Source: Clostridia bacterium | GTDB taxonomy: Bacteria; Bacillota; Clostridia; Christensenellales; Aristaeellaceae | Assembly (NCBI GenBank): GCA_017428385.1 | Contig: JAFRQX010000036.1 | Location: 7,325-71,324 of the forward strand | DNA: 64,000 nucleotides | Direction of reading: 5' to 3' | In this document: piece after piece, positions 7,371-62,242 of the stretch | Layout: each line of letters starts with the position of its first letter | Numbering within the stretch: the stretch's first letter is position 1 | Made by a program: the position numbers and the translations under genes | The notes under the pieces: generated by a model | What the model was told of the DNA's origin: nothing | The model's input: only the letters and a program-made list of their open reading frames with translations | Database searches by the model: none

Positions 7371-8114
7371 TTACTCCTCTTCTTTAAAAGACTTAATCGC
7401 GGAATACAGCAGCCAGGCACCGCCGACGCACAGGGCGCCCAGGGAAATGGTTGAGAAGATGCTTTTAGTCCGCAGGGTGATCATATTCATCATGTTGGCA
7501 AACAGGATCAGGTCCACAGCACCTACGATAATCCAGCGGTTGAAGCCGCCGATGAAAGCGCGGACCGGTTCGGCGCGGAGCATAAAGGGCAGGCCGACCA
7601 GCGCGGCGGCGAACAGGAACGAGGAGGCGGCCAGGAAGAACCAATCACCATGGGAATAGAAGCAGGAAACCGCCAGGGTAAACAGGATGCTGAGAACGAA
7701 AGCACAGAAGGACCAGAAGAGCTTGTTCTTCGGCACCATGAGGGGAACCAGGGTCCAGGAGGCCACGATGGCCAGGCCGCCGAGCACCAGGTAGAACCAG
7801 GACAGCGAACTGCCGGTGGCCATGTTGACAATAAAGCAGATGAGAATCGGAACCATAAACAGGCCGGAGACCACGGAGCCGACGGTGGCACTGCGGCGCT
7901 TGAAGCGTTTTGCCTGATATTCAATCACTTGATCTTTTTCCTCCTTCAGATTGTTTTCTATTTCATTTTTCCGGAGTTTTTCCAGGACGGCAGAGCACTC
8001 CGGACAATCGTGAAGGTGTTCCTCGATGAGTTCACGGCTGGTTTGGCTGCAGACATCATCAGCGTAAAGCGGAAGCAGATCACGGATTACTTCGCACTCT
8101 TTATTCATGTTCAT
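7371..8114 (-). CDS. zf-HC2 zinc-binding anti-sigma factor with multiple TM helices
   Basis: CEVIRDLLPLY...HLHDCPEC (HxxxCxxC) motif; downstream of ECF sigma. Confidence 0.9.
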   Translation of the reverse strand: MNMNKECEVIRDLLPLYADDVCSQTSRELIEEHLHDCPECSAVLEKLRKNEIENNLKEEKDQVIEYQAKRFKRRSATVGSVVSGLFMVPILICFIVNMATGSSLSWFYLVLGGLAIVASWTLVPLMVPKNKLFWSFCAFVLSILFTLAVSCFYSHGDWFFLAASSFLFAAALVGLPFMLRAEPVRAFIGGFNRWIIVGAVDLILFANMMNMITLRTKSIFSTISLGALCVGGAWLLYSAIKSFKEEE

Positions 8115-8589
8115 CCATCCTTTCCATCAGTTTCAGTTTGGCGCGATGATATGTGACCCGGGCCCAGTTTTCTGTCTTGCCGAAGATGGTACCGATCTGG
8201 CTGAAGGACAGTTCACCGAAGACCCGCAGCTCGAAGACTTCCCGGTAGGGCTCGTCCAGGGCGTGGAGCGCGGTGTGGATCCGGAAGGAAGAATCCTTGT
8301 CCGTGATCTGCTGCTCAATGCTCTTTCCCGCGGCGGGAAGCTCCTCGGGGATCGGAGCGGTTTTGTTCCGGCGGCGCGTCTCGTCCACGAAGCAGTTCTT
8401 CGCGATGGCGCACAGCCAGGTGACCTCGTCCGATTCATTCCGGAAGGAGGAAGCTTTTGAGAAGGCTTTGAAGAATGCTTCCTGGGTGATTTCCTCGGCC
8501 GTGTGCCGGTCGCCGGCCATCGTCATCACATAGGAGAAAACCCGCATGTAGTAAGTGTTGTAAAGCCTCTCGCAGGTTTCGTTGTTCAC
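8101..8589 (-). CDS. ECF RNA polymerase sigma factor
   Basis: AEEITQEAF region 2; TWLCAIAKN; region 4 ELSFSQIG...ARVTYHRAK. Confidence 0.93.
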   Translation of the reverse strand: MNNETCERLYNTYYMRVFSYVMTMAGDRHTAEEITQEAFFKAFSKASSFRNESDEVTWLCAIAKNCFVDETRRRNKTAPIPEELPAAGKSIEQQITDKDSSFRIHTALHALDEPYREVFELRVFGELSFSQIGTIFGKTENWARVTYHRAKLKLMERMDEHE

Positions 8590-32554: not shown

Positions 32555-33007
32555 ATGAGCATTTCCTACAGAAAACTGACAGAAAACGACCTGGAGACCT
32601 TCATCCGGATGCGGATTACGCAGCTCCGGGAGGAAGGCGCAACGGAGGACGTGGACCTGGTGCCGCCGCTGATGGATTACTATCACCGGCACCTGGCGGA
32701 CGGAACCTATGTGTCCTGGCTGGCACTGGACGGGGAGAAGATCGTCGGCACCAGCGGAATGTCCTTTGTGGAAAAGCCGCCGTACTTCAGCTGTCCCTCC
32801 GGGCGGATCGGCCTTTTGTCCAGCATGTACACCGATCCTGAATACCGGCGTATGGGCATCGCGAAGGAGCTGCTCCGGCGGGTAACGGAAGAAGCCCGGG
32901 CATACGGCTGCGGATGCGTGCAGATTACCGCCTCCGACATGGGCGTGCTGCTGTACACGGACTTCGGATTTAAGAAAAACGGAAACTTTATGCAATATAA
33001 CCTGTAA
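32555..33007 (+). CDS. GNAT acetyltransferase
   Basis: MYTDPEYRRMGIA; GVLLYTDFGF. Confidence 0.9.
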   Translation: MSISYRKLTENDLETFIRMRITQLREEGATEDVDLVPPLMDYYHRHLADGTYVSWLALDGEKIVGTSGMSFVEKPPYFSCPSGRIGLLSSMYTDPEYRRMGIAKELLRRVTEEARAYGCGCVQITASDMGVLLYTDFGFKKNGNFMQYNL

Positions 33008-33020
33008 GGAGGACCAGGAC

Positions 33021-33782
33021 ATGATCACCGAGTCTTTTGATAACCTTTCCCAGGCAATCATCAATCCGGTACGGAAGGAGAACGCCCCGGCGGTGGACGC
33101 CTGCATCGTGACGTTCTCCCATGAGATAGAGAAATATGTGGCGGAGAACTACGCCTCCGGGGAGATCACTTCCCTCTGGTGCGCCACAGGAAGGACGCCG
33201 GTTTACCTGATCGAGAAAAACGGCAAGCGGTTTGCCTTCTACAAAACCTATGTGGGCGCGCCGATCACCGTCGGCCTGATGGAGGACGCCGCGGCGGAGA
33301 TGGCCTGCGACAGGTTCATCCTCTTCGGCGGGGCAGGCTGCCTGAACAAGGAAATCGCCCACGGCAAGGTGATGGTCCCCACCGCTGCCTACCGGGATGA
33401 GGGTACGTCCTATCACTACGCCCCGGCGGCGGACTACGTGACCGTGGGAAAATCTGATACGGTGGCGGAATTCATGAAAACGAACGGTATTCCTTATGTG
33501 CTGGGGAAAACCTGGACTACGGATTCCTTTTACCGGGAGACGCGGAACAACTTTGAGAAGCGGAAGGCGGACGGCTGCATCTCCGTGGAGATGGAGTGCG
33601 CCGGCGCACAGGCGATGTGCGACTTCCGGGGACTGGAACTGTATCCCTTCTTCACAAGCGGCGACCTGCTGGACGCGCCGGAATGGGACGACCGGGGCAA
33701 GGATTACAAGGACGGCGGCCAGCATGACGTGGGCCACTTCAGCATCGCCCTGGCCCTGGCGGACTATATTTCACAAAAATAA
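33021..33782 (+). CDS. Nucleoside phosphorylase (PNP/UDP family)
   Basis: VGAP, FGGAG, RDEGTSYHY, WTTDSFYRET, VEMECA motifs. Confidence 0.9.
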   Translation: MITESFDNLSQAIINPVRKENAPAVDACIVTFSHEIEKYVAENYASGEITSLWCATGRTPVYLIEKNGKRFAFYKTYVGAPITVGLMEDAAAEMACDRFILFGGAGCLNKEIAHGKVMVPTAAYRDEGTSYHYAPAADYVTVGKSDTVAEFMKTNGIPYVLGKTWTTDSFYRETRNNFEKRKADGCISVEMECAGAQAMCDFRGLELYPFFTSGDLLDAPEWDDRGKDYKDGGQHDVGHFSIALALADYISQK

Positions 33783-33793
33783 TTTCCGCAGGG

Positions 33794-33822
33794 TGTAACA
33801 TTTACCGCTTTTCATTCGTAAT
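33794..33822 (+). promoter_or_regulatory. ECF-type promoter
   Basis: TGTAAC-N17-CGTAAT upstream of sigma gene. Confidence 0.6.
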
Positions 33823-33839
33823 ATCAGTGAAGAAGGCAG

Positions 33840-34379
33840 GTGGAAGGGATGACCGGGGAGCAGGAACTGGTAAGACTGCTGAAGACCGGCAGCGCGGACG
33901 CGTTTGAACAGATGATCACACGCTGTCGTGCCGGAGCAGAAGCCTATGCCTGCAGCCTCCTCCATGATTCCCAGGCCGCCGAAGACGCCGTACAGGAAGC
34001 TTTCTCCAGACTCTATGCCGTCCGGACAGACATCGATGAAAACCGTTCCTTCTCCGCTTATCTGTACACGATCGTAAAACGAATCTGTATAGACGAGCTG
34101 CGGAAAAAGAAACGGTTCCCGGATCTTCCGGGAGAGCTGCCCGATCCGCCGGTTCCCTCGGCGGAAGCGGAATACATCAGCCACTGGGACCGGCTGAACC
34201 GGATCCACATGCTGGCTGAACTGGATGAGACGGACAGGAGACTGCTGACAGCTTTCTCACTGGAAGGGAAGACCACGAAAGAGATCGCCGGGGAAATGAA
34301 CATGACCGACGGTCAGGTGCGGGTCCGGCTGCACAGGATCCGCAGAAGAATCAGGAAAGGAATGAAAGACGATGCGTGA
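33840..34379 (+). CDS. ECF RNA polymerase sigma factor
   Basis: AEDAVQEAF, FSAYLYTIVKR, region 4 TKEIA...VRVRLHRIR. Confidence 0.92.
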   Translation: MEGMTGEQELVRLLKTGSADAFEQMITRCRAGAEAYACSLLHDSQAAEDAVQEAFSRLYAVRTDIDENRSFSAYLYTIVKRICIDELRKKKRFPDLPGELPDPPVPSAEAEYISHWDRLNRIHMLAELDETDRRLLTAFSLEGKTTKEIAGEMNMTDGQVRVRLHRIRRRIRKGMKDDA

Positions 34380-34557
34380 TGAGTATCTGAACCAGATCAT
34401 CCGGCGCGGAAACGAACTGGCAGTGCTGGAACATGCCGCACTGTCTTATCCGAAAAACACCTCAGTAATCCGTTGGGCGGTGGCTGCCGCCTTCGGGATG
34501 CTGGTGACCTTTCTTCCTTCCGTCTGTACAGCACACGCCTTCTTCCAGATGATGTGA
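34372..34557 (+). CDS. 61-aa single-TM protein, putative mini anti-sigma factor
   Basis: Overlaps sigma stop; hydrophobic C-half ending in AHA-FFQMM. Confidence 0.6.
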   Translation: MRDEYLNQIIRRGNELAVLEHAALSYPKNTSVIRWAVAAAFGMLVTFLPSVCTAHAFFQMM

Positions 34558-34573
34558 AAGGCGGAAACCATCC

Positions 34574-35209
34574 ATGGAAGAAAAGCATAACAATAACGAA
34601 AAAAAGCAGGTAAAAAAGAAATCCCTGGCACGGGAAATCCTGGAATGGGTGCTGACCATTGTGCTGGCTGTCGTGATTGCACTGCCGATCCGGGCTTTTG
34701 CGTTTGAGATGGTCCGGGTGGACGGGGAATCCATGAACAGCACCCTGGCCAACGGGGAAATCATGTTTGTGTCCAAGTTTGACTACGCGACCACCTGGCT
34801 TTCCTTCCCGTGGCAGGATGACAGGAGCAAGGAGCAGGCAACACGCATCACCACCGGCGGCAATCCCCAGCGGTTTGACGTGGTGGTATGCCGGTATCCG
34901 GGACGGGGCGACACCAACTTTGTGAAGCGGGTGGTAGGCCTGCCGGGAGATACGGTGGAGGTTCGGGAAGGCTACCTGTACGTGAACGGCGAGAAGTTTG
35001 ACGAGCCGTATATCAAGGACGAATACCGGACCGGCCGGCTGAACAGCTTCGGCCCGTACGAGGTTCCGGAAGGCGAATACTTTGTAATGGGCGATCACCG
35101 GAACAACTCCAACGACAGCCGCATGCAGGGATCCCTGCCGCGAAACATGATCATCGGGCACGTGCGCACCGTGCTGTATCCCTTCGGCGAAATCCGGGGA
35201 ATAGAATAA
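34574..35209 (+). CDS. lepB: Signal peptidase I
   Basis: VDGESMNSTL (Ser), FVKRVVGLPGD (Lys), MGDHRNNSNDSR boxes. Confidence 0.95.
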   Translation: MEEKHNNNEKKQVKKKSLAREILEWVLTIVLAVVIALPIRAFAFEMVRVDGESMNSTLANGEIMFVSKFDYATTWLSFPWQDDRSKEQATRITTGGNPQRFDVVVCRYPGRGDTNFVKRVVGLPGDTVEVREGYLYVNGEKFDEPYIKDEYRTGRLNSFGPYEVPEGEYFVMGDHRNNSNDSRMQGSLPRNMIIGHVRTVLYPFGEIRGIE

Positions 35210-35245
35210 AAAAAGGGCATCGCTTTGAGGCGATGCCACTTTTTT
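35209..35245. terminator. Bidirectional terminator
   Basis: ggcatcgc/gcgatgcc stem with A and T tails between convergent genes. Confidence 0.75.
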
Positions 35246-35249
35246 AAAT

Positions 35250-35328
35250 TAATACTGAAAACTTAAAACTTAAAACCTAAAAATGGTGGAACAAACTGCT
35301 TCCGGAAGGAAGCAGTTTTCAGTATTTA
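35250..35328. repeat. Short mosaic repeat (AAAACTT heptamers plus aaactgcttc..gaagcagtttt hairpin)
   Basis: Near-identical to 15908-15980. Confidence 0.8.
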
Positions 35329-35936: not shown

Positions 35937-37244
35937 TTACCGGCAGGCTTTCCGCACTGCTTCCCGGACGGCTTCCAGGGGAAGGTTGAGCTCCTTCGCC
36001 AGGGCGGCGATCTCCTCATACTCAGCCTTGACTCGTTCGGCGCCCATGCCGGAGGCCCGCTTAAGCCGGACGGGACCGTATTCCGTGGAGACGGTTTCCT
36101 CATGGCGGTCCAGTACATACCGGCTCATGTCCTGGCGGCGGATGCCCAGGGTGGTGGTGTGCTTCATCATAACTTCCGCCAGTTTGTCCGCGTCCTGCGC
36201 CAGGCAGATAACCGACAGCAGGATGCCCGGGCGGCTCTTCTTCATGCCGATGGGCTGGGTGTAGACGTCCCGGGCGCCGGCGGCGAAAAGCTGCTCCATG
36301 GCAAAGGCGATATCCTCGCCGGTCATGTCATCCAGGTTGCACTCGAGGCGGGTGATGGTTTCCAGCTCTCCTTCGCTTTGGCCCAGGAATGCACGGATAC
36401 AGTTGGCCTGTTCAAAATCCTTTTTGCCCATGCCGTAGCCGATGGCTTCCACAGCCATGACGGGGCGGTCGCCGAAACGGGAGACAAAGTGCTTCAGCAG
36501 GGCGGCGCCTGTGGGCGTGCAGAGCTCGCCCCTGATTTCTCCGCCATAGGAGGGAATGCCCTCCAGGATCAGCGCGGTGGCCGGGGCGGGAACGGGCAGG
36601 ATGCCGTGGGCGCAGTGGACATGGCCGCTGCCGGTATGAACAGGAGAAGCAATAACCTGATCCGGGAAAAGCTGTTCCATCAGCAGGCATACGCCCACCA
36701 CGTCCGCCACCGCGTCCAGGGTACCCACCTCATGGAAATGGATCTCCGTGACCGGACGGCCGTGAACCCGGCTTTCCGCATTGGCAATCAGGGCATACAC
36801 AGCCTTGGCGTCGGCCTTGACCCGGTCGGACACATCCAGGCCGTTGATCAGCGCTTCAATATCCGCCACGGAGGCATGGTGATGATGCCCGTGGTCATGA
36901 TCGTGGTGATGATCATGTTCTTCTTCATGGTGATCATGGTCATGCTCGTGATGATGATCATGATCATGGTGGTGATGCTCATGGTCATGATCATGGTGCT
37001 CGTGATCATGATGGTGGTCATGGGCGTCTCCGGCTTCTTCCTCCACGCCGTCCACGGTAACCTTCACATGCGTTCCGGTGATACCGCACTTGACCGATCC
37101 TTCAGCGGCAACCGTAACGCCGGGCAGGCCAATGACGTTCATTTTGTCAATGAAAGCCTGGCGGTCGCCGGTCAGCTCCAGCAGGGCCGCGGTCAGCATA
37201 TCCCCGGCAGCGCCCATGGCGCATTCCAGATACAGTGTCTTCAT
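35937..37244 (-). CDS. larC: Nickel pincer cofactor biosynthesis protein LarC (nickel insertase)
   Basis: CAMGAAGDM, IHFHEVGTLD, CAHGILPVPAPAT, ELCTPTGAA, ECNLDDMTGE; long His-rich insert. Confidence 0.95.
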   Translation of the reverse strand: MKTLYLECAMGAAGDMLTAALLELTGDRQAFIDKMNVIGLPGVTVAAEGSVKCGITGTHVKVTVDGVEEEAGDAHDHHHDHEHHDHDHEHHHHDHDHHHEHDHDHHEEEHDHHHDHDHGHHHHASVADIEALINGLDVSDRVKADAKAVYALIANAESRVHGRPVTEIHFHEVGTLDAVADVVGVCLLMEQLFPDQVIASPVHTGSGHVHCAHGILPVPAPATALILEGIPSYGGEIRGELCTPTGAALLKHFVSRFGDRPVMAVEAIGYGMGKKDFEQANCIRAFLGQSEGELETITRLECNLDDMTGEDIAFAMEQLFAAGARDVYTQPIGMKKSRPGILLSVICLAQDADKLAEVMMKHTTTLGIRRQDMSRYVLDRHEETVSTEYGPVRLKRASGMGAERVKAEYEEIAALAKELNLPLEAVREAVRKACR

Positions 37245-37798
37245 TTGACTGTTCTCCTGTTATTCAGAATCAGGCGGCCCCGTTCCAGGGCTATAACGAG
37301 CAAGGGAACCAGAACGATCTGCAGGATAATCCCGAGGACAGGCTTGGCAAACGCCCTGACCCAGACAAAGGCCAGCAGGGCGTCATTGATCTTTACCAGA
37401 CCCAGGCTGGTCAGGAGAAGGTATACGATGCCGTATACAATACGGCCCGCAAGCATGGCGACGATCAGGGAAACGTAGATGCTCCATTTCTTTTTCGGCA
37501 GCAGCATATACAGCAGTCCGGACAGGGCGCCGTATGTGGCCAGCTCAAAGGCCATTACCGTGGCGTCGGGGAAAATGCCGGGCATACCGTTCAGCAGCGA
37601 ACTGAGCAGCGGAGCTGTAAAGCCAACCACGAGGCCCCAGGACCAGCCGCACAGGAAACCACACAGCAGCACAGGAATATGCATCAGATTCAGGGTTTTA
37701 CCGATATCCGGAATGAGTCCGGCAACTCTTGGCATCATGACAGCCAAAGCCAGCAGTAAAGCGGCATAGGTCAGTTTGCGAACTTTCAGGGAAGACAA
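37241..37798 (-). CDS. ECF transporter S component (substrate unknown)
   Basis: Six TM helices, LMHIPVLL motif; TTG start after AGGAG; 4-nt overlap with larC. Confidence 0.85.
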   Translation of the reverse strand: MSSLKVRKLTYAALLLALAVMMPRVAGLIPDIGKTLNLMHIPVLLCGFLCGWSWGLVVGFTAPLLSSLLNGMPGIFPDATVMAFELATYGALSGLLYMLLPKKKWSIYVSLIVAMLAGRIVYGIVYLLLTSLGLVKINDALLAFVWVRAFAKPVLGIILQIVLVPLLVIALERGRLILNNRRTVK

Positions 37799-37850
37799 GG
37801 GCAGTTCTCCTCTCATATATCGTTGGCAGTGATCTGCTTCAAGTATACTT

Positions 37851-37881
37851 ATGTTAAACCTTAAAGTAAACTCCAAGTCAA
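37851..37881 (-). promoter_or_regulatory. MerR-type promoter with dyad operator
   Basis: TTGACT-19-TAACAT with CTTGGAGT-N2-ACTTTAAG dyad in the spacer. Confidence 0.75.
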
Positions 37882-58342: not shown

Positions 58343-59983
58343 TTACAATGCCATCGTGAAAAAGGTTCTCTGAGCTTCAGAAATCTGGGTTTTCCCATCC
58401 GCAGTTTCTCTTCGAAAATCCTCCAGCGCAACATAAAATGTTACGGAGAGGTAGTAGTCGCGCCTGACCTCTATCCTTTCAATTAGGTGAGCAAGAACCA
58501 TTTTCTTTTCATCCCGTTGCATTAAATCATAAGTATCTGCCCACTCCATGATGCTCTGATACTGACTCGAGAGGAACTTAACATGGTTTTCTTCGTTGTC
58601 CTTTTGCTTTTGAAGATCGGCAATTACTTTCTCCATTGTTGTAATTCGATCGCGAATATCATTCAGCATCGGATTCAACACATCAGCAGTTAGTTTGCTT
58701 TCGCCCATAAGACAGTTGATTATCTCTTTTTCGATAGCCTCACGTTTTGCTTGGAGCTGTTTTAGTTCTCCCTCGCACCTCTTTATCATGCTTAAGGTTG
58801 AGCTTTCTTTTTGCCTCCTGGCTTGTTCTTTCCAGATAGAATCAACTGTAGACTTAACGCTTTCAAAGTACTGATGAACAACACGATCAATCTCATCTTC
58901 AATGATTCTTGCTGAATAGACGGTTTGTCCATCACATTCTCTGGCATCTATTGCTCCATTATAGCAACGATAGATCGGACGGAAGTAAGTGTGGTTTTTT
59001 CGATTTCTTACACAATAGCTTCCAACAAGTTTTTTGTGGCAATGACCGCAATAAAGAATACCCGAAAGCAATGTGGCGCCATAGACTGATGTCTTTGTTC
59101 TTCCCTCTTCAATGATACCATTCTCCAATTCCCTACGGCTGTCATACCGGTGAAGAATACGATCCTTGAGAGCATGCTGGACGAATTCAAACTCAGCATC
59201 TGATATCAAGCGAAGGTCCTCAATAGGTTCTGATACCACATCGTTCATATGCATCCTGCCAGTATACACAATATTCTTTAGTATTGTCATAACTGTCGGC
59301 CGTGTCCAGACTTTCTTGTCGTCTGGGTATTTTTTGTTAAGATGATTACAAATCTGCCATGCACCACAATCGTGTTTTCCAGCCAGATTAAAGATTTCCT
59401 GAATGATCGGGCCTGTCTTTTCATCAATTTCCAAATCATATAGCGGACGATTTTTCTTTCCAATCCGGCCCTTATGCACCAGTTTGTATCCATAAGGGCA
59501 AGTGCCACCTCGCCAGATCCCATCTGCTGTCATTTGAGAATGAGCAGCCTTCACACGTATAGAAGTTTTTTCACTTTCACCACCGGCTTGCCAGTAACGG
59601 ATATAATTGATCAACTTATCTGCCCTGTTCTCAATTCGCTGCTGACCCTCCCTCGTGCTCCAGACTTCAATCCCATGTTCGACAAACCATTGAACCAAAA
59701 AAGGCGTTTCATCTTCTCGTCGTCCAAGTCGGTCAAACATAAAGACCAGGAGAATATCGAACTCCCTGCGCTCAGCTTTTGATCTTATCTCTTGGATAGC
59801 ATCTCGTTTGCTCGCGGAAATCTTATACCCTGAAACGCCTTTTTCCATCAGTTCACCAGTAAACTTCCATTCCGGTTGTCTGCTAATAAAATCCAGACAT
59901 TCACGGCGTTGCATAGGAATGTCATCTTGTGGGTCAACCTGCCCTTTGGTGGATACTCTGTATAAACACATTACTCTTTTCAT
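58343..59983 (-). CDS. Large serine recombinase (resolvase + recombinase + Zn-ribbon/coiled coil)
   Basis: CLYRVST catalytic Ser, FMFDRLGR, GGTCPYGY, LSGILYCGHC...YRC; RBS before ATG 59983. Confidence 0.95.
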   Translation of the reverse strand: MKRVMCLYRVSTKGQVDPQDDIPMQRRECLDFISRQPEWKFTGELMEKGVSGYKISASKRDAIQEIRSKAERREFDILLVFMFDRLGRREDETPFLVQWFVEHGIEVWSTREGQQRIENRADKLINYIRYWQAGGESEKTSIRVKAAHSQMTADGIWRGGTCPYGYKLVHKGRIGKKNRPLYDLEIDEKTGPIIQEIFNLAGKHDCGAWQICNHLNKKYPDDKKVWTRPTVMTILKNIVYTGRMHMNDVVSEPIEDLRLISDAEFEFVQHALKDRILHRYDSRRELENGIIEEGRTKTSVYGATLLSGILYCGHCHKKLVGSYCVRNRKNHTYFRPIYRCYNGAIDARECDGQTVYSARIIEDEIDRVVHQYFESVKSTVDSIWKEQARRQKESSTLSMIKRCEGELKQLQAKREAIEKEIINCLMGESKLTADVLNPMLNDIRDRITTMEKVIADLQKQKDNEENHVKFLSSQYQSIMEWADTYDLMQRDEKKMVLAHLIERIEVRRDYYLSVTFYVALEDFRRETADGKTQISEAQRTFFTMAL

Positions 59984-60552
59984 ACTGCAACCCTCTTTCC
60001 TTTGAGGGCTATAGCATGGAAGCGCGCAGCATTCAGTTTTCAAGGTGCGTTTTATGTACAGTCACAGATTAGTTTTAGGAATTAAAAGTGTCAAGGATAT
60101 CATTTCGCTCACTCGTCTGAGTTCGAACTCGTGTCCTACCTCTTAGGAGATCGAAAAAGTGTTCGCCTTTGCTGTTCCCTGAAGTGCCTTTAAGCCTTGC
60201 CATTGCTGGGTTTCTAACGTTTTTCACAGTTCGCATTTTCCTTCAAAATACCCCCGTTTTCCCCCAGTGCTGTTAGCTGGGTGTTAGCACAGCTAACAAA
60301 GGCGGCGTGTTCGACTTTCACATCTACCGCCAAATCGTTAGCTGGACGTGATGAAATCATCATCATTTATCCCCGTAATGCGTCAAATGACTGCCCAGTC
60401 ATGAATGAATATTCATTGCATATTTTCCAAGACGCTTCCAGTATTCCAGATCTGTGTTTTGTCCCTCCATAAAGCGGATCGCGGCATAAGGGCCGGGAAA
60501 TGCACGAACTCCCACGGGGTATGTGCCTCGTGGGAGTTTTTTTTCGTCTTTT

Positions 60553-61728
60553 TTACTCGATTTCGAGAGTGATTGCTTCCTCCATGTGCGGCTGCTGGTT
60601 CTGGTAAACGGGCACTAAGGAGATGCCAGTCAAATCATTCATGGCATCAAATAATACTTCATATACAAGCTGGTTTTCTCCGCTTATTCCGACACCTTGC
60701 ACTCCGTTCTCTGAAATTATTTCACCATTGACATATAGGTACCAATCCTCGATCATGTCAATATGATCCGGATTCTCCCATGTCTTCCAGACTTGAATCC
60801 ACGCATCCGGGCAGGTGATCATGATTTTTCCACGCAAATCGATATGTCCTGCCGTCAGTTCAGCCATAGCCGTATAATTCGAGCCACTTATGCTGCCTTT
60901 CAGCCGTGTCAGATCGGTGTTCTGATTCAAAGTGAATTCAAAGAAGGTGTTTTCGCCTCTCTCCGTCGACTGCCGATACGTGGTTCCGTCTTGATACATG
61001 ATGCTGTGAATACGATAAAGTTTTGCCTGGAAAGTCAAGGTTTCCTCAAGACGATCATCAGGAATTTCACACTCTTTCCATCCGATGACGCTACCATCTT
61101 CCTGGACGATATTGTCCCCGCCAATAATATCAAGATAGGTTCCGTCCGCTAAACTCAGACCATCATGCAATCCTTTTTCTGTGCTTTCAATCCATCGCTG
61201 GCTTTGACCATCAAGCTGCAGGATTGCCTGCTGACGTTCAGGCTCGTCGCTGATCATAGTTTGGGAGACAATCATGTTTTCTTCAACCCAATCCCAATTG
61301 ATTTCACCATCCGGGCTGCCTTCATGGAGAACGGTTGAAGTCCAGTCGCCGCTCATCCGATATGAAATAAACACTCGGTTTCCTTCATAATATGCCTGCT
61401 CGATACGGATGGTGATACCATCATCTGTTGTCCATTCACGTTCAATAGGATCGGCGACTTTATCTACTTCTGAAAGTCTGCTGTCCCCACGCGGATTCTG
61501 CGCCAGTTCGCCGAAGAGCCCAAGCCCGGCTGCAAGTGCGGCGGTCATGGAAATAATAACAAGAGCAATAACAAGAATGGCAGATGTAGAAAGCTTTTTG
61601 ACCACAGGTTCTTCTCCTTTCGCTTTTCGTGCAATCTGGTAATGCAGCGAAGGCGCTTCGTCAATCCCGCGAGTACAATCGTCAATCGCAGCGCGGATGC
61701 TGTTCATGATTTCCTGATCAGTTTTCAT
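60553..61728 (-). CDS. Anti-sigma-like membrane protein (DUF4179-like)
   Basis: Overlaps sigma stop; TM ending TAALAAG; GITIRIEQAYYEG beta segment resembles 40344-41471. Confidence 0.7.
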   Translation of the reverse strand: MKTDQEIMNSIRAAIDDCTRGIDEAPSLHYQIARKAKGEEPVVKKLSTSAILVIALVIISMTAALAAGLGLFGELAQNPRGDSRLSEVDKVADPIEREWTTDDGITIRIEQAYYEGNRVFISYRMSGDWTSTVLHEGSPDGEINWDWVEENMIVSQTMISDEPERQQAILQLDGQSQRWIESTEKGLHDGLSLADGTYLDIIGGDNIVQEDGSVIGWKECEIPDDRLEETLTFQAKLYRIHSIMYQDGTTYRQSTERGENTFFEFTLNQNTDLTRLKGSISGSNYTAMAELTAGHIDLRGKIMITCPDAWIQVWKTWENPDHIDMIEDWYLYVNGEIISENGVQGVGISGENQLVYEVLFDAMNDLTGISLVPVYQNQQPHMEEAITLEIE

Positions 61729-62242
61729 CGTCTTCGCCTCCTTCCAGTTCGGTTCTCAGTTTCTGCTTTGCCTTATGGATTCTGCTGGAAACAGCTGCTT
61801 CCGTCAGGTTCAGCATTTTTGCGATTTCTTTGATGGGATAGCCCTCATAGAAATACAGCAGAACGACTTCCATGTATTTGGGCTTCAACTTCATGATCGC
61901 CATGGTCAGAGCAATATGATCATCGCTTGGTGGCGCAGATGACAGGAAGGGCAGCTGGTCGACGGAAACACGAAAATCAATGTATCGATACCATGCACTT
62001 CGTCTGTAATCCCGACAGCAATTGATTGCGATCCGGATCAGCCAGGTCTTTTCACTGCTTTCCCCACGAAAAGAATCCATGCTCCTGAAAGCCTTCAGAA
62101 AGGTTTCCTGTACCACATCCTCCGCAGCAGTACGATCTCTCAGGTATATGCAGCAGATTCGGAGCAGATCCTTTTCATATTGCTGCACCATTTGATCAAG
62201 TCGGTCTGCCGGGGTTTGATTCGGCGCCTGAATCATTCCCAC
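61718..62242 (-). CDS. ECF RNA polymerase sigma factor
   Basis: AEDVVQETF, KTWLIRIAIN, YPIKEIAKML; CGTCTAA at 62265-62271. Confidence 0.93.
   Translation of the reverse strand: MGMIQAPNQTPADRLDQMVQQYEKDLLRICCIYLRDRTAAEDVVQETFLKAFRSMDSFRGESSEKTWLIRIAINCCRDYRRSAWYRYIDFRVSVDQLPFLSSAPPSDDHIALTMAIMKLKPKYMEVVLLYFYEGYPIKEIAKMLNLTEAAVSSRIHKAKQKLRTELEGGEDDEN

Follow-up and report, generated by a model that had tools for sequence, protein, structure and literature searches.

Type I signal peptidase (SPase), an essential enzyme, is a drug target. The enzyme acts as the site-1 protease of two anti-sigma factors, RsiV and RsiP (PMC4183432, PMC8844934), and in the case of RsiV the SPase cut is followed by the action of the site-2 protease RasP (PMC4183432, PMC6066255, PMC9044953). 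In the SigV-RsiV systems of Bacillus subtilis, Clostridioides difficile and Enterococcus, an extracytoplasmic function (ECF) sigma factor is encoded directly upstream of its single-pass anti-sigma factor. A similar arrangement is present in the operon described here, which spans positions 33794-35247 on the forward strand of a 64,000-nucleotide stretch of DNA from a Clostridia bacterium (the window; assembly GCA_017428385.1, contig JAFRQX010000036.1, positions 7,325 to 71,324), and which consists of the genes for an ECF sigma factor, a protein of 61 codons (the small protein) and a type I SPase (lepB), followed by a terminator (Table 1). A probability of about 0.5 is assigned to the reading that this operon is autoregulated and that the small protein is at once an anti-sigma factor and an SPase substrate, with a lower probability for the last step, in which its cutting frees the sigma factor.

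By sequence, the small protein resembles RsiV in having a short cytoplasmic N-terminus, as used for sigma binding, and a predicted SPase I site just outside the membrane. However, RsiV is about 285 aa long and carries DUF4179 together with a lysozyme-binding ectodomain that gates cleavage, whereas the small protein ends seven residues past the site and has no Pfam domain. Indeed, it lacks DUF4179, alignment with hhalign against a DUF4179 anti-sigma factor encoded elsewhere in the window gave a probability of 0.4%, and its relatives end three to eight residues past the site. Furthermore, the sigV operon does not include an SPase gene, while at this locus the SPase is the conserved cargo. For the SigP-RsiP-SipP system of Bacillus thuringiensis, the cited paper does not put sipP in the sigP-rsiP operon (PMC8844934); by contrast, the SPase gene is part of the operon here, so that cleavage would feed back on SPase synthesis. 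Functionally, SigV-RsiV and SigP-RsiP-SipP are the closest systems, but the small protein belongs to neither anti-sigma family. The literature searched describes neither an ECF sigma operon that includes an SPase gene nor an anti-sigma factor of about 60 residues with an SPase site.

Conservation of the operon

The order sigma gene, small gene, SPase gene is found in 22 of the 22 loci with enough sequence, down to 28% identity of the small protein, so that the linkage to lepB noted in the first-pass annotation of this DNA holds also for the most distant relatives. The small gene is present in ten species-representative genomes, which come from uncultured rumen and gut Clostridia (one of them labelled Christensenellales); each of the ten has the trio in identical order, and clustering of all flanking open reading frames (ORFs) revealed no other shared neighbour, the flanks being different. 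Tracing six distant members of the small-protein family (28-45% identity) to their contigs gave seven loci, at each of which, within the reach of the contig, an overlapping ECF sigma gene again stands before the small gene and a Peptidase_S26 gene behind it. A metagenome scan found five more trios. In the window, the start of the small ORF overlaps the stop of the sigma gene by 8 nt (ATGCGTGA), and an overlap of 4-11 nt is present in 16 of 17 loci. The other two ECF sigma genes of the window also have an anti-sigma gene in the same overlapping downstream position. The start of lepB lies 16 bases past the stop of the small ORF and is preceded by a Shine-Dalgarno sequence, which across the loci directly follows the stop of the small gene, with a gap of 9-30 nt to lepB.

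Table 1. Coordinates of the operon and its features, as positions in the window
Feature	Position	Strand	Basis or detail
ECF-type promoter	33794..33822	+	-35 TGTAAC 33794-33799, 17-nt spacer, -10 CGTAAT 33817-33822
ECF (group 4) sigma gene, 176 aa	33849..34379	+	Sigma70_r2, Sigma70_r4_2, TIGR02937
Small membrane protein gene, 61 aa, proposed minimal anti-sigma factor	34372..34557	+	conserved family, dN/dS 0.18
Small protein residues 1-25, conserved amphipathic helix, proposed sigma-binding part	34372..34446	+	conservation, AlphaFold2
Small protein W35-L48, 14-residue hydrophobic h-region after R34	34474..34515	+	family alignment
Small protein P49-S-V-C52-T-A54, c-region, predicted SPase I cut after A54	34516..34533	+	family alignment
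Small protein H55-M61 (HAFFQMM), short hydrophobic extracytoplasmic tail	34534..34554	+	family alignment
Type I signal peptidase gene, 211 aa	34574..35209	+	Peptidase_S26, TIGR02227, catalytic Ser53 34730-34732, Lys118 34925-34927
Intrinsic terminator hairpin	35216..35247		T-runs on both sides

The linkage is one-sided, since the small gene was always accompanied by the SPase gene (22/22 loci), while the SPase gene does occur without the sigma and small genes. A scan of metagenomes with an alignment of the trio SPases gave a sharp break, with 11 loci at 56-80% identity and the rest at 42% or less. Within this close SPase clade, five loci carry the sigma and small genes, and one (L019) was excluded from this presence call, as its contig begins at the SPase gene. 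At four loci (L024, L025, L027 and L028) the SPase gene stands directly behind a TPR gene without the sigma and small genes, in the order RNaseH-like gene, TPR gene, lepB in L025 (433-3169) and L028 (3-2437), the two whose sequence extends beyond the TPR gene on the upstream side. In L014 and L012, the same TPR gene is followed by the sigma gene, the small gene and lepB, and L014 (145-3571) has the RNaseH-like gene upstream as well. Judging by this gene order, the sigma-small cassette is present or absent at exactly one chromosomal position. The SPases without cassette have longer N-terminal extensions (221-322 aa).

In the remaining locus (L018, 860-975), which encodes an SPase 77% identical to that of the window, the sigma gene is missing and lepB is preceded by a 3' relic of the small ORF (CTTCTTCCAATCGATCTGAAAGGCGG), corresponding to its last ~27 nt (92.6% identity to L001, E=5e-6), with a TGTAAC ~90 nt upstream. 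This locus looks like a deletion derivative of the cassette, although caution is needed with a single 1.9-kb metagenome contig. Since the SPase clade occurs without the pair at the same chromosomal site, the sigma and small genes look like a regulatory cassette that was added to a resident lepB, and the one-sided dependence therefore points to lepB as the target of the pair.

Sigma factor, promoter and expression

The sigma factor matches Sigma70_r2 (2.7e-15) and Sigma70_r4_2 (6.5e-12) of Pfam, as well as TIGR02937 (1.1e-26; 93 bits against a cut-off of 42.9), and with a sigma-2 and a sigma-4 domain only and a length of 176 aa (the group spans about 170-200 aa) it is an ECF (group 4) sigma factor. 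No NCBIfam equivalog reached its cut-off, matches to such models being sub-threshold only. Nearly all of its homologues (n=239) are 172-180 aa long. The start codon was taken as the ATG at 33849, with a GTG at 33840 as the alternative.

A sequence of the form TGTAAC-N15-18-CGTA occurs once in the 64-kb window (33794-33822), where 0.09 matches are expected from shuffles, and also once in each related locus. Of 15 related loci whose upstream sequence is available, 14 have the motif TGTAAC-N16/17-CGT(A/G)TA at the matching distance 5' of the sigma gene, namely nine of the ten relatives at species level and five loci that are far more distant. The exception is L003, with CGTT replacing CGTA. Farther upstream, the DNA is unrelated across the 15 loci. 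AAC and CGT are the usual signature of ECF promoters, and the conserved promoter of this type in front of the sigma gene supports autoregulation of the operon by the sigma factor, as far as can be judged from sequence. No sigma-70-type promoter was found in 33000-35300, and lepB therefore seems to depend on this circuit. The operon is ended by a strong terminator hairpin, which is common to a convergent nitroreductase gene, and its upstream neighbour is a PNP_UDP_1 phosphorylase gene. The ECF promoter of its own, the overlap of the sigma gene with the 61-aa gene and the adjoining lepB had all been listed in the first-pass annotation and are found where it placed them.

Metatranscriptome assemblies of anaerobic digesters and of cattle rumen or gut contain the operon. 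One contig from an RNA library begins at 33822, the last base of the -10 element, and runs through the sigma and small genes as far as 34851 in lepB. The promoter is crossed by further contigs, for which read-through or DNA carry-over is possible. Taken together, the metatranscriptome contigs attest the presence of the operon in RNA libraries, without defining a transcription start. In two loci (L001, 5998-6486, and L017, 5321-5752), a further ECF sigma-like gene is located just 3' of lepB, with ~25% identity to the sigma factor of the trio.

The co-encoded signal peptidase

The SPase matches Peptidase_S26 (E=3.7e-50) and TIGR02227 (9.3e-48) and aligns to the structures of Escherichia coli LepB and Staphylococcus aureus SpsB. 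It shows the hallmarks of the type I (S26A) enzymes, with the serine motif GESM (S53), the lysine motif VKRV (K118), the box E sequence GDHRNNSNDSR and one N-terminal transmembrane segment. The serine, the lysine and box E are kept in 14 of 14 SPases of these loci, and by its catalytic residues the co-encoded enzyme is intact. The window contains no SPase paralogue elsewhere. Between boxes B and C, residues ~73-97 (34790-34870) form an insertion typical of the clade (TWLSFPWQDDxSKEQAxRITTGG), which is absent from the solved SPases that align to the enzyme and from L014, the only clade member without it.

The small protein and its predicted cleavage site

The small protein has ~145 distinct relatives of 54-65 aa. 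A word-based search gave 57 clusters of relatives, all of 61-63 aa, and a second profile search gave 120 relatives of 54-65 aa. An exhaustive search of 1.84 billion representatives with a hidden Markov model (HMM) yielded 20 credible relatives, of which 15 have 57-63 aa, while the other five are aberrant or look like frameshifts (three of 59-62 aa with a divergent C-terminus, one of 37 aa and one of 75 aa); three further HMM matches, located in giant repeat proteins, are spurious. Had the orthologues been long anti-sigma factors, the 61-aa protein could have been a truncated version, but apart from the aberrant and spurious matches the relatives keep to 54-65 aa, and no long anti-sigma factor is among them in the databases covered by the profile searches. 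Conservation of the length in ~145 sequences rules out a truncated pseudogene of a long anti-sigma factor, and the median dN/dS of 0.18 (28 pairs from eight 61-codon orthologues) rules out a chance ORF. By these sequence measures, the small gene is a real gene. Its product has no match in Pfam, NCBIfam or the sequences of the PDB.

The anatomy of the family was derived from 137-145 distinct sequences, depending on the position counted. Residues 1-25 are the most conserved part, with Y5, R12, E15, L16, L19, A22 and A23 nearly invariant, and the conserved residues lie on one helix face (the observed moment is equalled or exceeded in 192 of 5000 shuffles). The AlphaFold2 monomer contains two helices, 2-25 and a continuous 28-60, at moderate confidence, with low confidence at the C-terminus. 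A variable linker containing Pro27 ends at R34 (Arg or Lys in 144/145), and residues 35-61 form an uninterrupted, uncharged hydrophobic segment of 27 residues. Within this segment, a stretch of exactly 14 residues separates Pro49 from the last charged residue in 134 of 137 members, and Pro49 itself, which corresponds to position -6 of the predicted site, is present in 145/145. Position 50 is Ser or Ala and position 51 is Val or Ile; position 52 (-3) is Cys in 80 and Ser in 62 sequences (142/145), position 53 is Ala, Thr or Ser, and position 54 (-1) is Ala in 140 and Gly in five. Position 55 (+1) is Gln or His and never Pro. The tail after the site comprises three to eight residues, with a mode of seven, and in 135/137 its final residue is one of I, M, L and F.

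In signal peptides cleaved by SPase I, a positive n-region precedes an h-region of 7-15 residues, a helix breaker lies near -6, positions -3 and -1 hold small residues and position +1 is not Pro. The small protein fits this geometry of a Sec-type signal peptide with an SPase I site, which is a comparison of sequence only, and its n-region is unusual in that it carries a domain of 33 residues. The family-wide site, with C52-T53-A54 before and H55 after the predicted cut, reads as a textbook SPase I substrate. It was placed after A54 because P49, Cys/Ser52 and A54 are conserved and A56 is not. The first-pass annotation had correctly given the C-terminus of the protein as ...LPSVCTAHAFFQMM, and had proposed an AxA site at A54-H55-A56; this motif does exist in the window and in close relatives, but A56 is Ala in just 84 of 145 sequences (M, V, T, S or I in distant members), and the conserved site is located two residues upstream. 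An AxA motif in one Ala-rich hydrophobic segment means little by itself. The release of a pentapeptide, which had been suggested along with the AxA site, is correspondingly weakened, as a cut after A54 would release the heptapeptide HAFFQMM here and a piece of just three (AML) or four (QMIL) residues in some relatives. Based on the signal-peptide geometry and the obligate linkage to the SPase gene, which both argue for a cut by SPase I after A54, the small protein is on balance probably an SPase substrate. A lipoprotein was also considered and is ruled out, since Val precedes Cys52 and since Ser replaces Cys in 62 members. Close relatives all have Cys as the -3 residue (34525-34527), where distant ones have Ser; this residue is not part of a lipobox.

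Proposed mechanism and alternatives

The small protein is likely the cognate anti-sigma factor of the operon, because of its position, its translational coupling to the sigma gene, its N-in topology and the one-sided conservation of its N-terminal helix. In the proposed mechanism, the sigma factor would drive its own promoter and thereby lepB, while the N-terminal amphipathic helix of ~25 residues would hold the sigma factor at the membrane. SPase I, either the co-encoded enzyme or a paralogue, would cut the small protein after A54, leaving a product that resembles a remnant signal peptide and that would be cleared by a site-2 protease or a signal-peptide peptidase, so that the freed sigma factor could transcribe the genes for itself, the anti-sigma factor and the SPase. 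The hydrophobic tail might act as a latch, in that residues 35-61, placed in the membrane as one segment, could bury the site; this would parallel the protective amphipathic helix of RsiV, in which residues just after the site provide a shield against SPase cleavage (PMC6066255). That the sigma factor would be freed after removal of the product is suggested by the RsiV and RsiP precedents, and by the finding that remnant signal peptides, like small membrane proteins, are cleared by site-2 proteases (PMC10470546). The operon probably ties lepB transcription to peptidase activity, while the sign of this coupling, with cleavage activating the sigma factor as for RsiV, is proposed by analogy and only tentatively.

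Several points weigh against the proposed mechanism. Pfam, NCBIfam, a PDB profile search and hhalign detected no similarity of the small protein to anti-sigma domains or solved structures. The single helix 28-60 of the AlphaFold2 model is also the shape expected of a tail-anchored, uncleaved protein, so that the model does not separate a cleavable from an anchored segment. Moreover, a cleavage-activated sigma factor with the peptidase in its own operon amounts to positive feedback, of which the benefit for a resident lepB is not obvious. With only three to eight residues outside the membrane, a site-2 protease might, by analogy with other small membrane proteins, cut without a site-1 step, which would make the SPase cut unnecessary (PMC10470546). 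Finally, no ORF for a site-2 protease (HExxH plus NxxPxxxxDG) is present in the window, the part of the genome to which this search was confined.

The concern about positive feedback would be met if cleavage did the opposite to activating the sigma factor, a sign that is judged unlikely. The operon would then be a self-contained homeostat of SPase capacity, in which the 61-aa anti-sigma factor would be a decoy preprotein, that is a monitoring substrate, and the sigma factor would tune lepB by negative feedback. The uncleaved form would be unstable or inactive, for example because a site-2 protease or a PDZ protease recognises its hydrophobic C-terminus, leaving the sigma factor free and lepB on, while sufficient SPase would trim the tail, yielding a stable and active anti-sigma factor that turns the operon off. 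This would suit a cassette that sits directly before a resident and highly conserved SPase gene, with lepB alone as conserved cargo and as local target of the promoter; for a gene that, as described above, seems to depend on the circuit, a positive loop would carry a risk, and negative feedback would suit it better. The hydrophobic C-terminal residue (135/137) is of the kind that PDZ and tail-specific proteases prefer, although no evidence supports a degron in the tail. Monitoring of SPase sufficiency, and with it matching of the SPase level to secretory load, is known in one system only, AyrRA of S. aureus (PMC5727409), whereas both experimental cases of SPase-cut anti-sigma factors, RsiV and RsiP, run in the opposite direction (PMC4183432, PMC8844934). 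Furthermore, remnants of SPase cleavage are normally less stable (PMC10470546), and a stable cleaved inhibitor is without precedent. The first-pass annotation had envisaged a switch that monitors SPase capacity and induces lepB; this logic needs the sign opposite to the RsiV and RsiP precedent, and the interpretation as a whole is partly supported.

It is equally doubtful that the small protein is a tail-anchored anti-sigma factor which SPase never cuts. Residues 35-61 would in this case be a single transmembrane helix, as their continuous uncharged stretch and the AlphaFold2 model allow, and Pro49 with the small residues around it would serve intramembrane cleavage by a site-2 protease or helix packing, with lepB simply a sigma-regulated gene responding to some membrane or envelope signal. 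Indeed, substrates of site-2 proteases need helix-destabilising residues, and RseP directly cleaves small membrane proteins (PMC10470546). Furthermore, AxA is frequent by chance in Ala-rich transmembrane segments. However, a tail anchor leaves unexplained the fixed distance of 14 residues between Arg34 and Pro49 (134/137), the small residues at -3 and -1 and the absence of Pro at +1, as well as the presence of an adjoining SPase gene at every locus of the small gene.

It is very improbable that the small protein serves as the precursor from which a dedicated SPase frees a secreted peptide signal of hydrophobic character (HAFFQMM or FFQMM), with the sigma factor in the producer circuit: C-terminal hydrophobic peptides are the pheromones of the SHP/Rgg and ComS/ComR systems, and the tail is conserved in the close family (AFFQMI, with F57 invariant in alignment A1), but unlike the precursors of Phr, SHP and ComS the small protein has a tail that varies family-wide in sequence and from three to eight residues in length, down to three or four in the relatives mentioned above, its cytoplasmic N-terminal helix is its most conserved part, and clustering of the flanking ORFs showed no conserved receptor, oligopeptide permease or exporter nearby, the sigma and SPase genes being the only conserved neighbours.

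Other features of the window

The two further ECF sigma genes of the window are both on the reverse strand. The second (61718-62242, within 60553-62242) overlaps the gene for a single-pass DUF4179 anti-sigma factor of 391 aa (60553-61728), which has the architecture of RsiV, whose DUF4179 region protects the SPase site; this genome thus holds a conventional candidate for an SPase-gated anti-sigma factor as well. The pair is adjoined by the gene for a large serine recombinase (58343-60043, reverse strand; Resolvase, Recombinase, Zn_ribbon_recom), which may mark the edge of an integrated element. The third ECF sigma gene (8101-8589, within 7371-8589) overlaps the gene for a multi-pass anti-sigma factor of 247 aa with a zinc-binding zf-HC2 domain (7371-8114). 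The reverse strand at 35937-37876 encodes a nickel insertion protein of the LarC type that contains a long insert rich in His and Asp (HDHHHDHEHH...), followed by the S component of an ECF transporter.

Comparison with known systems

Class I anti-sigma factors have a domain of ~80 residues with four helices, often with an HxxxCxxC motif. The small protein shows neither of the corresponding features (ASD or zf-HC2), as it has no Pfam or NCBIfam match at E<=0.1, a cytoplasmic part of 33 residues and no Cys/His motif. Class II anti-sigma factors such as CnrY and NepR bind their sigma factors with short peptides of one or two helices, and CnrY is itself a small single-pass membrane protein. The small protein may work like a class II anti-sigma factor of the CnrY type, a likeness that comes from helix 2-25 of the monomer model. 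However, CnrY is controlled by its partner sensor CnrX and not, as proposed here, by proteolysis at an SPase site.

For SecM, MifM and VemP, a small ORF directly before a gene of the secretion machinery encodes a substrate of this machinery that reports its capacity. These systems use translation arrest and unfolding of the mRNA, whereas regulation here would run via a sigma factor. In addition, the hydrophobic segment of the small protein is at the extreme C-terminus and thus still in the ribosome tunnel at termination, unlike in SecM, MifM and VemP. An RNA attenuator or arrest-peptide mechanism is not supported, given that no significant RNA structure was found between the small ORF and lepB (fold of 34500-34610, z=-0.68 against shuffles) and that the Shine-Dalgarno sequence directly follows the stop codon. 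AyrRABC of S. aureus is a transcriptional response to insufficient SPase activity, which senses uncleaved preproteins or stable signal peptides (PMC5727409); its parts, the repressor AyrR, the membrane protein AyrA and an ABC transporter, are unrelated to those of the operon, and its output is a bypass rather than SPase itself. If the negative-feedback alternative were true, the operon would be a proteolysis-based counterpart of SecM, MifM and VemP, with the smallest known membrane anti-sigma factor.

Proteolysis of an anti-sigma factor gated by SPase is already known, while a probable minimal anti-sigma factor without a sensor domain and a peptidase gene as the conserved output set this operon apart. 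With a sigma factor, 61 residues made up of a helix and a cleavable signal peptide, and a peptidase, the module would be simpler than any other SPase-linked regulatory switch so far described. It would provide a clean system to ask why some membrane segments are SPase substrates and others stable anchors, and in what way site-2 cleavage is licensed by cleavage at site 1. As a compact reporter, it could also be used to follow SPase activity or to detect SPase inhibitors. Compared with RsiV and RsiP, the module would reduce the same mechanism to its core, without a ligand-binding domain.

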